Shown: positions 21,027 through 36,050 of the stretch, piece by piece | Position numbering within the stretch: the stretch's first letter is position 1 | Layout: each line of letters opens with the position of its first letter | Assembly (NCBI GenBank): GCA_963822295.1 | Contig: CAWGHD010000001.1 | Coordinates: 4,577 to 68,576, forward strand | DNA from: an uncultured Solirubrobacterales bacterium | GTDB lineage: Bacteria; Actinomycetota; Thermoleophilia; Solirubrobacterales; 70-9 | Reading direction: 5' to 3' | DNA: 64,000 bases | Translations under genes and position numbers: made by a program | Notes under the pieces: generated by a model | Database searches by the model: none | Seen by the model: only the letters and a program-made list of their open reading frames with translations | What the model was told of the DNA's origin: nothing

Positions 21027-28640
<7,614 letters not shown>

Positions 28641-28647
28641 CCGTCGA

Positions 28648-28695
28648 TCGAGTGGCGGCTCACCGCCCCCATGGGGGCGGTGAGCCGCCACTCGA
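28648..28695 (+). terminator. perfect 48-nt palindrome (24-bp arms) just after rpoC; terminator-like hairpin without a T-run
   Basis: TCGAGTGGCGGCTCACCGCCCCCA|TGGGGGCGGTGAGCCGCCACTCGA read directly; it starts 8 nt after the rpoC stop. Confidence 0.5.
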
Positions 28696-28717
28696 CGCTG
28701 CTCGGTAGATTGGCCGC

Positions 28718-30037
28718 GTGGCCAGTTCGGAGAAGGTCTGCATCATCGGCGCCGGGTCCTCGGGGATCACCGCCTGCCAGGTCCTGAAGGCGCGCGGGGT
28801 CCCGTACGACTGCTTCGAGAAGGGGTCGATGGTCGGCGGCAACTGGCGCTATGAAAACGACAACGGGCAGTCGTCGGCCTACCGCTCGCTGCACATCAAC
28901 AGCGCCCGCAAGCTGATGTCCTACCGCGCCTTCCCGATGCCGGAGGACTATCCGGACTATCCGAGCCATTGGCAGGTGGCCAAGTACTTCGACGACTACG
29001 TCGAGCGCTTCGGGCTGCGCGAGGGGATCACCTTCAACGCCGAGGTGGTCTCCGCCGAGCCCGCCGACGGGGAGTGGGACGTCACGGTCGAGGACGCCGA
29101 GGGGCGCCGCACAGAGCGCTACCGGGCTGTGCTCGTCTGCAACGGCCACCACTGGAACCCGCGCTGGCCCGAACCGGCCTTCGCCGGCGCCGAGGACTTC
29201 GCCGGCGAGCAGATCCACGTCCATCATTACCGCGAGCCGGACGTCCTCGAGGGCAGGCGGGTGCTCGTCCTCGGGATCGGCAATTCCGCCGTCGATCTCG
29301 CCGTCGAGGCCTCGCGGATCGCCGACAAGACCTTCCTCGCGATGCGCCGCGGGGCCTACGTCATCCCCAAGTTCCTCGGCGGCAAGCCGGTCGACGAAGC
29401 ATCGCCCCCCATGACGACCTACCTGCCGATGTCGGTGCGGCGCCTCTTCATGGGCAGGCTGCTGAAGCTGACCGTGGGGGAGATGACCGACTACGGCCTG
29501 CCCAAGCCCGACCACAAGCTGCTCGAGGCGCACCCGACGGTCTCCTCGGAGCTGCTGCCGCGGGTCGGGCACGGCGACATCACGATCAAGCCCAACATCG
29601 AGGCCTTCACGGGCGGCAACACGGTGCGCTTCGCCGACGGCAGCGAGGAGGAGGCCGACCTCGTCGTCTACTGCACCGGCTACCGGATCAGCTTCCCCTT
29701 CCTCGACCCGTCGGTGTTCGAGTCCAGGGACAACCAGATGCCGCTATACCGGCGCGTCGTGGACGTCGATCACCCGGGCCTGCACTTCATCGGCTTCGTC
29801 CAGCCGCTGGGGCCGATCATGCCGATCGCCGAGGAACAGTCCGAATGGGTCGCCGACCTCCTGCGCGGCAGGGCGACGCTGCCCTCGAAGGACGAGATGC
29901 GCAAGGAGATCGCGGCGCACGAACGAGCGATGAAAAAGCGCTTCGTCGCCTCTAAGCGTCACACGATCGAGGTGGACTTCCACCCCTATCTGCGCGAGAT
30001 CCGGCGCGAGCGAAAGCGGGCCGCCCAGCCGGTCTGA
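28718..30037 (+). CDS. flavin-containing (FMO / Baeyer-Villiger type) monooxygenase (439 aa)
   Basis: GTG start. FAD site 'VCIIGAGSSGITA'. FMO motif 'FAGEQIHVHHY'. NADPH site 'VLVLGIGNSAVDLA'. 'DLVVYCTGYRISFPFL'. Confidence 0.8.
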   Translation: MASSEKVCIIGAGSSGITACQVLKARGVPYDCFEKGSMVGGNWRYENDNGQSSAYRSLHINSARKLMSYRAFPMPEDYPDYPSHWQVAKYFDDYVERFGLREGITFNAEVVSAEPADGEWDVTVEDAEGRRTERYRAVLVCNGHHWNPRWPEPAFAGAEDFAGEQIHVHHYREPDVLEGRRVLVLGIGNSAVDLAVEASRIADKTFLAMRRGAYVIPKFLGGKPVDEASPPMTTYLPMSVRRLFMGRLLKLTVGEMTDYGLPKPDHKLLEAHPTVSSELLPRVGHGDITIKPNIEAFTGGNTVRFADGSEEEADLVVYCTGYRISFPFLDPSVFESRDNQMPLYRRVVDVDHPGLHFIGFVQPLGPIMPIAEEQSEWVADLLRGRATLPSKDEMRKEIAAHERAMKKRFVASKRHTIEVDFHPYLREIRRERKRAAQPV

Positions 30038-30263
30038 CGGGGGCTCGGGTCCTCGGTCTCGCAGCGCCACCGAGCGGTGAGCTGTGCGGGCCTCGCGGCC
30101 TGGGCCTGCCCGGGCTCCAGCGTTTGGGGCTGCCGCCGCCGTCCTCGCTCGGCTCATAGGCGGTGGACGCCGGGCGGCTCGCCCACCAGATCAGCCAGAG
30201 GGCGAAGAGCACCGGTGCCTTGAGCACGACCAGCAGGAAGAAGATCGGCCAGAAGCCCTCCAC
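29952..30263 (-). CDS. possible small membrane protein (GTG 30263; the 3' part overlaps the FMO gene end and may be spurious)
   Basis: 'VEGFWPIFFLLVVLKAPVLFALWLIWWASRP' is a clean hydrophobic helix 35 nt downstream of the HAD-like gene. The remaining Pro/Arg/Gly-rich part looks like off-frame sequence. Confidence 0.25.
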   Translation of the reverse strand: MEGFWPIFFLLVVLKAPVLFALWLIWWASRPASTAYEPSEDGGGSPKRWSPGRPRPRGPHSSPLGGAARPRTRAPVRPAGRPAFARAGSRADRGGSPPRSCDA

Positions 30264-30298
30264 GCGGTTCAGTCTAGACAGGCCGGACGCGGCAGCGC

Positions 30299-30790
30299 TC
30301 AGGCGCTCTCGCCGGCCAGGCTCCTGGCCCAGGCGAGCAGGGCTTCGGTGTGGGCCTCCTCGAGGCCCAGCGCCGCCTCGGTCGGGACCAGCAGCGTCGG
30401 CTCGGGCCGGCCCTGCGCCCACTCGTAACAGCTCTGGTCGAAGCTGTCGTCGATCCAGGCCAGCGGCCGGCCCTTGCCGTAGTCGTCGAGCGGCCCCAGC
30501 TTCCAGTGGGCCGAGCCGAAGCGGGCGGCGCCGTCGAAGCTCAGGAAGGGCAGCTCGGGCAGGCCGAGGATGTTCGGCAGGTAGTCGTTGGCTTTCTCCT
30601 CCCAGCCGGTCGCCCAGACCAGGTCGAAGTGCTCGGTCAGCCGCATCAGCCGCTCACCCGCCCCGAGGGAGATGCAGTGGACCATTCCGTCGACGAGCTG
30701 GAACTGGGCCATCGAGCTGGGTGGCGGCTCGTCGAAGCCGAAGAGGCTGATCACCCCGTCGACGTCGACGGCGAGCAGCGGGCGGCTCAT
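30299..30790 (-). CDS. HAD-superfamily hydrolase-like protein (163 aa from ATG 30790)
   Basis: 'MSRPLLAVDVDGVISLFGF' (HAD motif I, DxDG) and 'RPLAWIDDSFD' (acidic motif IV). Internal Met of ORF 30299..30982; starts 17 nt after the rpsG stop. Confidence 0.6.
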   Translation of the reverse strand: MSRPLLAVDVDGVISLFGFDEPPPSSMAQFQLVDGMVHCISLGAGERLMRLTEHFDLVWATGWEEKANDYLPNILGLPELPFLSFDGAARFGSAHWKLGPLDDYGKGRPLAWIDDSFDQSCYEWAQGRPEPTLLVPTEAALGLEEAHTEALLAWARSLAGESA

Positions 30791-30806
30791 CGGGGGAGGA
30801 GCCCGC

Positions 30807-31277
30807 CTACCAGCGGTAGTGCGCGAAGGCCTTGTTGGCCTGGGCCATGCGGTAGATGTCGTCCTTCCGCTTCCAGGCGCTGCCCTGCTGCTGGGCCGCG
30901 TCGAGGATCTCCCCGGCGAGGCGGTCCGCCATCGAGTACTCGCGGCGGTTGCGGGCGTAGTCGACCAGCCAGCGGACGGCAAGCGTGCGGGCGCGGCGGG
31001 CGGGAACCTCGACCGGCACCTGGTAGGTGGCGCCGCCGACGCGGCGGGAGCGGACCTCGAGCACCGGTGTCAGCTGTTTGATCGCCGCCTCCAGCGCCTC
31101 GACGGGATCCTCGCCGGACTTCTCGCCGACGATCGCGAGGCTGTCGTAGACGAGCCGCTCGGCGAGCGACTTCTTGCCGTCGCGCATGACCTTGTTGATC
31201 ACCTGCTGGACCAACCGGTTGCGATGGCGGGCGTCGGGCTCGAGCGGCCTGATCTGAGCTGCGGAACGACGGGGCAT
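30807..31277 (-). CDS. rpsG: 30S ribosomal protein S7
   Basis: '[70 protein letters not shown]'. TGATG overlap with rpsL. Confidence 0.95.
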   Translation of the reverse strand: MPRRSAAQIRPLEPDARHRNRLVQQVINKVMRDGKKSLAERLVYDSLAIVGEKSGEDPVEALEAAIKQLTPVLEVRSRRVGGATYQVPVEVPARRARTLAVRWLVDYARNRREYSMADRLAGEILDAAQQQGSAWKRKDDIYRMAQANKAFAHYRW

Positions 31278-31672
31278 CAGGAAGCTTTGACGCCGTAGCG
31301 GGAGCGGGCCTGCTTGCGGTCGGAGACGCCGGCCGCGTCGAGGGTGCCGCGGACGATCTTGTAGCGGACGCCCGGCAGGTCCTTGACGCGACCACCCCTG
31401 ACCAGGACCACGGAGTGCTCCTGCAGGTTGTGGCCCTCGCCCGGGATGTAGGTGGTGACCTCCATCCCGTTGGTCAGCCTCACACGCGCGATCTTGCGCA
31501 GCGCGGAGTTCGGCTTCTTCGGCGTTACGGTCGCGACGCGGGTGCAGACGCCCCGCCTCTGGGGCGCGGCGACGGCCTTCTTGCGCCCTTGCCCCGACTT
31601 GAGGCCCGGCGTCGTCGTCTTCTTCTTAGGCCGCTTGCGGCCCTTGCGTACAAGTTGGTTCGTGTTCGGCAC
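31277..31672 (-). CDS. rpsL: 30S ribosomal protein S12 (131 aa from GTG 31672; ~9-aa N-terminal insertion compared with typical S12)
   Basis: '[89 protein letters not shown]' forms the C-terminal part of ORF 31277..32470. Upstream of the GTG the frame turns into Arg/Pro junk. Confidence 0.9.
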
Positions 31673-32604
31673 GGCCGCGCATGGTAGCGGGCCGTCGCTT
31701 TTGGGGCGAGGACGAGGAGCGCTCCGCCCAGCATCAGCCCGGCGGCCGCGGCGAGCTGGGCGTAGAAGCCGTCTTCGAGGACGGCGGTCGCGCCGGAGAA
31801 GATCGCGGCCTGCTCGCCGACGTCGAGCCCCTGCGGCCGGTCGACCAGGAGCACGACCGCGATTGCGATCAGGCCGAGCAGGAAGACCACCCGGCCGAGG
31901 CGCGGCCGGCGGCGCCGGCCGGCGACGAAGCCGAGGGCCCCCGCCGCCAGGGCGACCGGGACGAGCAGATAGGAGTGGGCGTCGACCGGGGTCTCCTCCC
32001 CGACCGTCGGCGCCTTCGCCACTTCCGGCAGGCCCTCGTAGCCGGGCTGGCCGACCTCGACCCCGCGGTAGTCGACGAACTGGGAGACCAGCAGGCAGGC
32101 CGCTGCGGCGACGATCACAGCGCAGATCGCCCGCTCGGGGGTGGCGACGGCGCTGGCGCGGGTCGACGCGCGCACGGCCCAGGCCGCGCTCGCCCGGGCC
32201 CGCCGCTCGGCGACGCCGAGCAGGCGGAGCACGAGAACGCCCAGCGGCCGCAGCCGGCGGCCGGTCCAGCGCAGCGCCCCCATGACGCCGGCGTGCACGG
32301 GCCCGGCCCAGCGCTTCAGCCGCTTCGACCAGCGCCGGCCGGCGAGCCGGGCATCGCGGGAGAACTGGAGGATCAGGGGCTCGGCACGGACGAGGACCCG
32401 GTCCACCCGGCGGTCCACCCTGCGGGTCCACCTGACCATCAGCTGCGGCAGCGTCGCCCTGCGCCGCCAAATGGGCGCTGCTATCATCGCGCGTCGCTGG
32501 GTCCGCTTCTTCTTCGCGGGCTTCCGCGGGCCCGAGAGGGCCTTTTTCTTGCGCCGATCCCGGCTCTTGCCGGACGGCTCTCGTTTAGCTCGTCCCCGCT
32601 TCAC
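31525..32604 (-). CDS. hypothetical polytopic membrane protein with a basic N-terminus (start and stop uncertain; the ORF tail overlaps the rpsL 5' end)
   Basis: Hydrophobic helices '[18 protein letters not shown]', '[19 protein letters not shown]', '[16 protein letters not shown]' and '[18 protein letters not shown]', unlike the Arg/Pro-rich alternative frames. Candidate starts are ATG 32604 and Met40 at 32487. Confidence 0.5.
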
Positions 32605-32627
32605 GCCAACACGTTTACCTTAAGACC

Positions 32628-34739
32628 ATGCCACGAAGCTTCCCCCTAGAGAAAACTCGCAACATCGGAATCATGGCGCACATCGACGCCGGTAAGACGA
32701 CGACGACCGAGCGCATCCTCTATTACACCGGCCGCACGCACAAAATCGGCGAGGTGCACGAGGGCGCTGCCGTCATGGATTGGATGGAACAGGAGCAGGA
32801 GCGCGGGATCACGATCACCTCCGCCGCCACCGCCTGCGAGTGGAACGGGCACCGGATCAACATCATCGACACGCCCGGCCACGTCGACTTCACGGTCGAG
32901 GTGGAGCGCAGCCTGCGGGTGCTCGACGGCGCGATCGCCGTCTTCGACGCCGTCGCCGGAGTCGAGCCCCAGTCGGAGACCGTCTGGCGCCAGGCCGACA
33001 AGTACAAGGTGCCGCGCTTCGCCTACATCAACAAGATGGACAGGACCGGCGCCGACTTCTTCAACGCCGTGCAGACGATGACGGACCGGCTCGGCGCCAA
33101 CCCGCTGCCGATCCAGCTGCCGATCGGCAGCGAGGGCGACTTCATCGGCATCGTCGACCTGATCGAGATGAAGGCGCTGGTCTGGCAGGACGAGCTCGGC
33201 ACCGAGTTCGAGACGACCGAGATCCCCGACGACCTCAAGGAGCAGGCCGAGGAATACCGGACCCAGCTGATCGAGGCCTGCGCCGACTACGACGACGAGC
33301 TGATGGAAAAGTACCTCGGCGAGGAGGAGATCCCGCATGAGCGGATCGCCAAATCGCTGCACCGCGCCTGCCTCGACACCAAGGTCACGCCGGTACTCTG
33401 CGGCTCCTCGTTCAAGAACAAGGGCGTGCAGCCGCTGCTCGACGCGGTCGTCGAGCTGCTGCCCTCGCCGCTCGAGGTGCCGCCGGTCACCGGCATCGTC
33501 CCGGCCGCCAAGGGCGAGGAGGAGCCGACCGAGGCCGCGCGCCCGGCCGACGACAGCGGGCCCTTCGCCGCGCTCGCCTTCAAGATCATGACCGACCCCT
33601 ACGTCGGCAAACTCACCTACTTCCGCGTCTACTCGGGCAAGCTCGAAGCCGGTGGCCGCGTCCTCAACGTGAAAACCGGCAGGACCGAGCGGATCGGGCG
33701 GCTGCTGATGATGCACGCCAACAGCCGCGAGGAGATCGAGGAGGTCTACTCGGGCGACATCTGCGCCGGCGTCGGCCTCAAGGAAACCGGGACTGGCGAC
33801 ACGCTGGCCGCCCCCGACGCACCGGTCGCCCTGGAGAGCATCGAATTCCCCGAGACGGTGATCGCGGTCGCGATCGAGCCGAAAACCAAAGCCGACCAGG
33901 AGAAGATGGGCACCGCCCTGCAGCGGCTCGGCGAGGAGGACCCGACCTTCAGGATCGAATCCGACGAGGAAACCGGGCAGACGCTGATCCACGGCATGGG
34001 CGAGCTCCACCTCGAGGTGATCGTCGACCGCATGCTGCGCGAGTTCAAAGTCGACGCCAACGTCGGCAAGCCTCAGGTCGCCTATCGCGAGACGGTCCGC
34101 AAGGACGTCAAGAAGGTCGAGGGGCGCTTCGTCCGCCAGACCGGCGGACGCGGCCAGTTCGGCCATGTGGTGATCAACCTCGAACCCGCTCCCGGCGAGG
34201 GCTTCGAGTTCATCAACAAGATCAAGGGCGGCACCATCCCCGGCGAATACATCGGCCCGGCCGAGCAGGGGATGAAAGAGGCGCTCGAGAACGGCGTCAA
34301 GGCGGGCTACCCGATGGTGGACGTCAAGGTCGAACTGATCGACGGCTCCTTCCACGACGTGGACTCCTCGGAGATGGCCTTCAAAATCGCCGGCTCGATG
34401 GCGATCCAGGAGGCCGCCCGCAAGGCGGACCCGGTCCTGCTCGAGCCCGTGATGTCGGTCGAGGTGGTCACGCCCGAGGACTTCCTCGGCGACGTGATCG
34501 GCGACCTCAGCCGCCGCCGCGGCAAGGTTCAGGGCCAGGAGCAGCGCGGCAACGCGCTCGCCGTCCAGGCCTTCGTCCCGCTCGGCGAGATGTTCGGCTA
34601 CGCCACGGATCTTCGCTCCTCGACTCAGGGGCGCGCCACCTACACGATGCAGTTCGAGCGCTATGAGGAGGTCCCGGCGAACATCGCCGAGGACATCATC
34701 GAGCACCGCGCGGGGGAGCCGGCGGGAGCCACCGCCTGA
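32628..34739 (+). CDS. fusA: elongation factor G (703 aa, intact)
   Basis: '[24 protein letters not shown]', '[24 protein letters not shown]' and '[11 protein letters not shown]' are the GTPase motifs; the full-length EF-G layout is present. Confidence 0.97.

Positions 34740-34865: not shown

Positions 34866-36050
<1,185 letters not shown>

Follow-up and report, generated by a model that had tools for sequence, protein, structure and literature searches.

The stretch of DNA considered here, called the window below, is 64,000 nt long and belongs to the metagenome-assembled genome (MAG) of an uncultured Solirubrobacterales bacterium (GenBank assembly GCA_963822295.1, designated G000; the window is G000:C1:4577-68576). 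The genome has a length of 2.74 Mb in two contigs and is 86% complete. The subject of the analysis is the str operon, which comprises the rpsL, rpsG, fusA, and tuf genes. In the window, rpsL and rpsG are located on the minus strand, whereas fusA and tuf are located on the plus strand; the str cluster is therefore split, and rpsL-rpsG are transcribed away from fusA, as had been stated in an earlier sequence-only reading of the same DNA, made without database searches. Gene identities were assigned by Pfam and NCBIfam profile searches, and all the genes named in that reading, i.e., rpoC, the FMO-like, small membrane and HAD-like genes, rpsG, rpsL, the gene of a basic membrane protein, fusA, and tuf, were found. 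Among them, the small membrane open reading frame (ORF) has no Pfam match, and the basic membrane ORF has no Pfam or NCBIfam match. The features of the region are listed below, with nucleotide positions counted within the window.

24591-28640, plus strand: rpoC, the left anchor of the interval; GGAGG Shine-Dalgarno sequence with a 4 nt gap to the ATG.
28706..30037, plus strand: FMO-like flavin monooxygenase, GTG at 28718 (Pfam PF00743, E = 6e-94); TAGATT 6 nt before the start.
29952..30275, minus strand: small membrane ORF, conserved part from near 30275, convergently overlapping the FMO 3' end; 40-69% identity in relatives.
30299..30790, minus strand: HAD-like hydrolase of 163 aa containing a DVDGV motif; PF18143 was matched only weakly, under the cut-off.
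30801..30812: left repeat arm, on the minus strand TGGTAG-G-CGGGC (the rpsG Trp and stop codons plus flank), complementary to 31682-31692.
30804..31694, minus strand: flipped cassette delimited by blastn, comprising rpsG, rpsL, 10-22 nt of the rpsL 5' flank, and no more than a few nt past the rpsG stop.
30807..31277, minus strand: rpsG (S7, 156 aa; PF00177, E = 6e-58).
31277..31672, minus strand: rpsL (S12, 131 aa, GTG start; TIGR00981, the bacterial S12 equivalog, 204.7 bits at a cut-off of 113).
31525..32604, minus strand: basic polytopic membrane ORF, 45-74% identity in relatives; probable start at GTG 32604 or, less likely, ATG 32488.
31681..31686, minus strand: TACCAT, -10-type box 8 nt before the rpsL GTG, inside the flipped segment.
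31682..31692: right repeat arm, on the minus strand GCCCGCTACCA, overlapping the rpsL -10 box.
32528..32548, plus strand: hairpin GGGCCC-GAGA-GGGCC and then TTTTT, located 80 nt upstream of the fusA ATG and in the frame of the membrane ORF (KKALSGP).
32616..32621, plus strand: TACCTT, -10-type box 6 nt before the fusA ATG.
32628-34739, plus strand: fusA, without a Shine-Dalgarno sequence.
34866-36050, plus strand: tuf; GGAG with a 4 nt gap to the ATG.

The co-directional adjacency of rpsL, rpsG, fusA, and tuf, which characterizes the canonical str operon, is absent here, and the membrane ORF intervenes. The rpsL and rpsG genes themselves are adjacent, bona fide S12 and S7 genes, each present in one copy; no second copy of either gene was found in the G000 genome. 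The rpsL stop codon overlaps the rpsG start codon as TGATG, and such a junction indicates a probable translational coupling of rpsG to rpsL. Given this overlap, rpsG would need no expression signal of its own.

When the window was compared with four non-flipped relatives by blastn, the sole reversed alignment was that between 30790/30804 and 31682/31694, and both flanks were colinear. It is only the segment 30804-31694, approximately 0.89 kb in length, that is inverted, and not the whole 4-kb block of non-ribosomal genes within which the sequence-only reading had placed the inversion. The ancestral-type gene order, found in the G068, G079, G077, G031, G071, and G089 genomes, is rpoC> FMO> <small <HAD / rpsL> rpsG> / <membrane-186 <membrane fusA>, with the HAD and rpsL genes divergent in the non-flipped relatives. 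The FMO, small-membrane, HAD, and membrane genes have the same position and strand in non-flipped members of the family, so the non-ribosomal neighbours did not move and are ancestral to the family. Since these neighbours were already in their present places and on their present strands before the flip, the splitting of the str operon predates it, and fusA-tuf already had expression signals of their own. After the flip, the membrane gene, rpsL, rpsG, the HAD gene, and the small ORF form a co-directional block on the minus strand. A second membrane gene is kept beside the flipped cassette in the G102 genome and has been lost in the other flipped genomes examined.

The same arrangement was found in all 41 of the 41 assemblies of the flipped clade that were checked; at least 11 genus-level groups are represented, and some of the assemblies are closed chromosomes in a single contig. 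The order rpoC> FMO> <small <HAD <rpsG <rpsL <membrane fusA> recurs unchanged in the 13 additional genomes of this genus-level group in which the region is present. It was also revealed in the genomes of the 10 other genus-level groups with the flip and in ten more MAGs retrieved by means of the membrane protein; these MAGs were produced in other projects, and among them are short-read MEGAHIT assemblies and a bin from marine sediment. The family sample comprised 80 genomes of 58 genus-level groups. In 11 of these groups (g1, g22, g25, g33, g34, g39, g40, g55, g61, g63, and g67) rpsG is opposite to fusA; in all other groups of the family where one contig holds both genes, rpsG and fusA are co-directional. 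In five other families of the order, rpsL-rpsG are co-directional with fusA, and in other orders of the class rpsG directly precedes fusA, as it does in one Solirubrobacterales family (G023).

A phylogenetic tree was constructed from the FMO, HAD, S7, and S12 sequences (886 columns), in which the 28 flipped rows are those with enough sequence. All 28 form one clade with an SH-aLRT support of 100, and one change on the tree is sufficient. The sister group of the flipped clade consists of G068 and G079, both with the co-directional arrangement. The flip is an old inherited trait of this lineage that arose once; it is neither an assembly error nor a new kind of system. In the sequence-only reading, a comparison of synteny among relatives had been named as the check, and a class-wide arrangement as the outcome that would make the rearrangement a lineage trait. 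The comparison revealed that the rearrangement is not peculiar to this genome but is a lineage trait, fixed at the sub-family level in at least 11 genus-level groups and of single origin; it is not class-wide, as the rpsG-fusA order is kept in other orders.

The inverted segment includes a candidate promoter. In 33 of 33 readable genomes from six families, flipped or not, a TANNNT hexamer is followed by exactly 8 nt and then by the rpsL start codon, with the variants TACCAT, TACTAT, TAGGAT, TACCCT, TAGCAT, and TATTGT; a Shine-Dalgarno sequence is lacking before rpsL in these genomes. In other families the hexamer is preceded by TGC, which corresponds to the TGN-extended form of the -10 box. 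No Shine-Dalgarno sequence (GGAG, GAGG, or AGGA) was found within 45 nt of the rpsL or fusA start in G000. The same geometry is common in this genome: among 1688 coding-like ORFs, the gap from the end of TANNNT to the first ATG or GTG is 6, 7, 8, and 9 nt in 120, 58, 53, and 62 cases, respectively, at a background of approximately 3-5 per offset, which gives 293 of 1688 ORFs versus about 16 expected. The leaderless-type signature is thereby present in approximately 17% of the coding-like ORFs, and a gap of 6 nt is the most frequent one. The -10 motif of mycobacteria is predominantly TANNNT, a -35 motif has not been found, and leaderless mRNAs occur there in abundance (PMC3898074); for high-GC bacteria, TANNNT about 12 nt upstream of the start codon has been proposed to mark leaderless genes (PMC3160421). 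The predicted frequency of leaderless genes here seems comparable to that in mycobacteria. A scan with the sigma-70 consensus gave 0 sites, which is expected for promoters consisting of a -10 box only. A local contrast can also be noted, with leaderless geometry at fusA (6 nt), rpsL (8 nt), and the FMO gene (6 nt), and GGAGG or GGAG at rpoC and tuf, which are internal operon genes. We infer that rpsL is transcribed from a -10-only promoter of the leaderless type. Gene callers that use ribosome-binding sites alone would misplace many start codons in these genomes.

An inverted repeat, CCCGCTACCA/TGGTAGCGGG, of 6-10 nt is located exactly at the breakpoints. The CCCGCTACCA arm lies just before the rpsL -10 box and is the reverse complement of the rpsG end, TGG TAG CGGG. 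The repeat is perfect over 10 nt in the non-flipped G077 genome and in the flipped G006 genome, and it comprises 6-7 nt in many others; in G000 it consists of 6+6 nt with one extra base. No long inverted repeats were found at the breakpoints, only short ones, and the repeat finder missed the interrupted repeat of G000. As to the statement of the sequence-only reading that there are no transposases, integrases, or terminal repeats in the region, no transposase or integrase was found by Pfam among the genes of 28.7-32.6 kb, so this part stands, while the part concerning the repeats does not, given the repeat just described. It is plausible that the repeat was the recombination substrate of the flip, an assignment that we hold tentatively and at somewhat less than even odds. 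Through recombination or template switching within it, the stop codon and the -10 box would both be re-formed, and the result would be exactly the junctions observed, in which the rpsG TAG directly abuts the HAD-proximal sequence.

The region upstream of fusA was described correctly in the sequence-only reading. The start codons at 32604 and 32628 are separated by 23 nt, TACCTT occupies 32616-32621, fusA has no Shine-Dalgarno sequence, and the leaderless-type geometry, in which TACCTT precedes the ATG by 6 nt, agrees with a signal that is very strong across the genome. TACCTT, 6 nt, and ATG are kept in most of the flipped clade; AGGA is found before the fusA ATG in some relatives within the clade. 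On the opposite strand, the complement of the fusA box, TAAGGT (32622-32617), is located 12 nt before the GTG of the membrane gene and is a possible divergent -10 box for it. The predicted divergent starts of the overlapping TACCTT and TAAGGT boxes (32616-32622) would be approximately 18 bp apart, a spacing reported for symmetric bidirectional promoters.

Another conserved element upstream of fusA is the hairpin, whose stem of six pairs and 4-nt loop are followed by TTTTT and which is formed in the minimum-free-energy structure. In each of the 44 Solirubrobacterales genomes examined, a GGGCCC-N4-GGGCC hairpin followed by T5-7 lies upstream of fusA, at 29-107 nt from the ATG, regardless of which gene precedes it, with a G-U variant in L047. 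There are only four strict copies of the motif in the whole G000 genome, and apart from the hairpin no plus-strand terminator-like site is present in 28.5-32.8 kb. No Rfam family was matched, either in the window at the gathering threshold or in 30.7-32.7 kb at E <= 1. The hairpin has the structure of an intrinsic terminator, namely a GC-rich stem-loop and a T-run; however, it is not located at the 3' end of a co-directional unit, since the upstream gene is divergent in the clade and in most other families. A co-directional gene upstream of the hairpin is present only in G023 and G022. In G023, which represents the canonical family, the hairpin is located between rpsG and fusA, and a related hairpin with TTTCGCATGC after it occupies this position in other orders of the class. 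Thus, it looks like an old rpsG-fusA intergenic element that was retained by fusA. In the flipped clade, the hairpin lies within the reading frame of the membrane gene (KKALxGP). In a reading that we consider rather improbable, it would act on fusA-tuf as a cis-regulatory element not described before (an attenuator, an insulator, or a 5' stabiliser, for example) and would be dual-coded in the flipped clade.

Several ORF boundaries in the region needed correction. Synteny and start-site comparison indicated that the true start of the HAD gene is the ATG at 30790 (MSRPLLAVDVDG), 16 nt past the rpsG stop. In the long HAD ORF 30982-30299, the first 64 codons are merely an alternative frame of rpsG. 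Similarly, the last 49 codons of the membrane ORF (31525-31672, minus strand, 148 nt) are an alternative-frame run into rpsL, with no stop before rpsL, and the conservation of this tail is due only to that of rpsL; the tail seems to have arisen as a side effect of the flip, together with the disappearance of the second membrane gene. At the other end of the membrane gene, a start at the conserved MIAA methionine, which would make the hairpin intergenic, was rejected as the general case. The distance from the hairpin to MIAA takes five values (54, 57, 60, 72, and 75 nt), all of them multiples of 3, and such in-frame insertions and deletions mean that the coding region extends at least to the hairpin. 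The proposal that the 'ARY' tail of the second membrane gene represents ancestral coding over the right repeat arm was dropped because of ambiguous frames. For annotators, both the long HAD ORF and the membrane ORF tail are to be treated as alternative-frame artefacts or by-products of the flip.

The explanation that we prefer, at a probability of approximately 0.8, is an ancient single inversion of a self-sufficient rpsL-rpsG cassette carrying its own promoter, with the breakpoint repeat as the likely substrate and fusA probably leaderless. According to it, in the ancestor of a multi-genus clade within an uncultured Solirubrobacterales family, the 0.89-kb cassette would have been inverted in place, starting from the order rpoC> FMO> <small <HAD / rpsL> rpsG> / <membrane gene(s) fusA>, in which the str operon was already broken. 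The putative rpsL promoter (CGC-TACCAT, 8 nt, GTG), lying within 20 nt of the start codon, would have moved with the cassette, and translational coupling through TGATG would keep rpsG expressed together with rpsL. Co-transcription of rpsL-rpsG with unrelated genes is possible, given the narrow gaps and the lack of terminators, but it is not required, because rpsL has kept its own -10 box.

Several observations weigh against this explanation. The repeat core is only 6-7 nt in most genomes, and the repeat partly follows from the independently conserved -10 box and S7 Trp and stop codons, and its involvement in the flip may thus be a coincidence. At fusA, the closest non-flipped relatives have TACGCC or TACGCA in place of a TANNNT box. 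Before the HAD gene of G000, there is no TANNNT box and no Shine-Dalgarno sequence, and the membrane ORF overlaps rpsL; no terminator-like sites were found between the minus-strand genes of the block, and together with the overlap this means that read-through may add to rpsL-rpsG expression. Finally, the rpsL and fusA promoters are predicted ones, deduced from sequence statistics and conservation.

Other explanations differ in how much of this evidence they account for. An assembly error or a chimeric join could be suspected, as G000 is a MAG and the window is on a 72-kb contig, yet the identical order in all 41 assemblies, obtained in varied projects with varied assemblers and including closed chromosomes, makes this possibility negligible. 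Only slightly less improbable is a reversible inverton or a recently inserted foreign island, which would agree with the short inverted repeat at both ends and with the slightly higher GC content at 30-33 kb. An inverton is characterized by flanking repeats, a recombinase, and the presence of both orientations; here, the repeat is merely 6-10 nt, no recombinase, transposase, or integrase was detected by Pfam in the region, and a single orientation of one origin is fixed in the 41 flipped assemblies, while the neighbours are ancestral. A more substantial, though still unlikely, alternative is that rpsL and rpsG are now mainly internal genes of a new five-gene operon driven from the membrane-gene promoter beside fusA, with TACCAT secondary or inactive. 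The 148-nt overlap of the membrane ORF and rpsL, the 16 nt between the rpsG stop and the HAD ATG with no TANNNT or Shine-Dalgarno signal at the HAD gene of G000, the absence of a minus-strand terminator-like site between the genes, and TAAGGT 12 nt before the membrane GTG are all in line with it. However, the TANNNT box at 8 nt is kept in all readable genomes regardless of the upstream neighbour of rpsL, rpsL has no Shine-Dalgarno sequence, which an internal cistron normally requires, and a ribosomal protein gene needs much higher expression than the gene of a poorly conserved membrane protein.

The remaining alternative concerns fusA, which might not be leaderless but transcribed from a promoter upstream of the hairpin; the hairpin would then serve as an attenuator or 5' stabiliser in a C-rich leader of 80-100 nt with no Shine-Dalgarno sequence. 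The occurrence of the hairpin and T-run in 44 of 44 genomes of the order with any upstream gene, the rarity of the motif elsewhere in the genome, the lack of TANNNT between the hairpin and the ATG in non-flipped relatives, AGGA near the ATG in some members of the clade, and the hairpin followed by TTTCGCATGC between rpsG and fusA in other orders would fit such a leader. Against it are the TACCTT box, which most of the flipped clade has at 6 nt from the ATG, the modal leaderless gap genome-wide, the location of the hairpin within the coding frame of the divergent gene in this clade, and the result that no promoter-like site was found upstream of the hairpin. A leader of this kind is possible but, in our estimation, the less probable arrangement; a leaderless fusA mRNA in the flipped clade is predicted with modest confidence, which is no higher because of the conserved hairpin and the missing TANNNT box in the nearest non-flipped relatives.

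The preferred explanation, an ancient inversion of the cassette with its promoter, has a consequence for replication. In five closed relatives, the cluster is located 0.27-0.58 Mb from dnaA; rpoC and fusA are oriented with the replication fork, and rpsG against it. If the origin is near dnaA, as assumed here, the flip put two essential and highly expressed genes head-on to the fork.

Several further observations concern the genes of this region and their products. In four other families of the order, a gene of a DMT-type transporter of about 290 aa is located directly before rpsL on the same strand (L044 1223-2092; L046 1273-2145; L049 2437-3312; L050 953-1906); in the window's family, this gene is not at the position upstream of rpsL. 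S12 has an 8-residue basic insert (e.g., GQGRKKAV before APQRRG), which gives the length of 131 aa and is found order-wide, including the rpsL genes of L044-L050; we take it to be lineage-specific by comparison with the S12 of E. coli and M. tuberculosis. A second EF-G paralogue, with 43% identity to FusA, is encoded at G000:C2:945745-947811 on the minus strand and is also found in most relatives. A perfect 48-nt palindrome (28648-28695) is located 8 nt past the rpoC stop, away from the inversion breakpoints; its sequence is not conserved in relatives, where the blastn alignments end near 28613-28628 and restart near 28730.

The locus can be compared with known systems. As in the canonical str operon, the same four genes are located between rpoC and the S10 cluster, and rpsL and rpsG are adjacent and coupled; the differences are the position of rpsL-rpsG on the opposite strand, the divergent membrane gene before fusA, and, probably, a separate leaderless promoter. 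A single promoter before rpsL driving all four str genes is geometrically impossible here for fusA and tuf. In E. coli, the spacer between rpsL and rpsG serves S7 autoregulation, whereas there is no such spacer here. Brandis, Cao and Hughes (2019) described operon concatenation in the translation supercluster of Gammaproteobacteria and insertions into its inter-operon spacers, together with fitness costs (PMC6735719). The breaks of the supercluster reported by these authors resemble the present case in being lineage-specific interruptions of an ancient colinear cluster, and the terminator-like hairpin kept beside the fusA start recalls their terminator-promoter overlaps; however, the break considered here is inside the str operon itself and is accompanied by an in-place flip. 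With the leaderless genes of actinobacteria (PMC3898074, PMC3160421), the locus shares TANNNT 6-9 nt before ATG or GTG and the lack of a Shine-Dalgarno sequence and of a recognisable -35 box, although the class assignment here is a statistical one, made from sequence. In sum, the locus represents a lineage-specific str operon variant with an intact rpsL-rpsG pair, which is real, cleanly explained, and ordinary in kind.

The rpoBC-str-S10-spc cluster is among the most conserved bacterial gene orders, and clean, datable exceptions to it reveal the constraints that maintain it. The flip can serve reliably as a synteny marker of one clade of uncultured Solirubrobacterales from soil. A broader reading, which we consider rather improbable, would treat it as a natural experiment in which -10-only leaderless promoters make essential ribosomal protein genes portable, and would add the fusA hairpin as an undescribed cis-regulatory element. 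On that reading, such genes could be cut from a two-billion-year-old operon, set head-on to replication, and nevertheless become fixed. The constraint was seemingly lifted by the promoter architecture, in which a start codon and a nearby -10 box make up a complete expression unit, so that a nearly pure coding cassette could flip and survive, even head-on.

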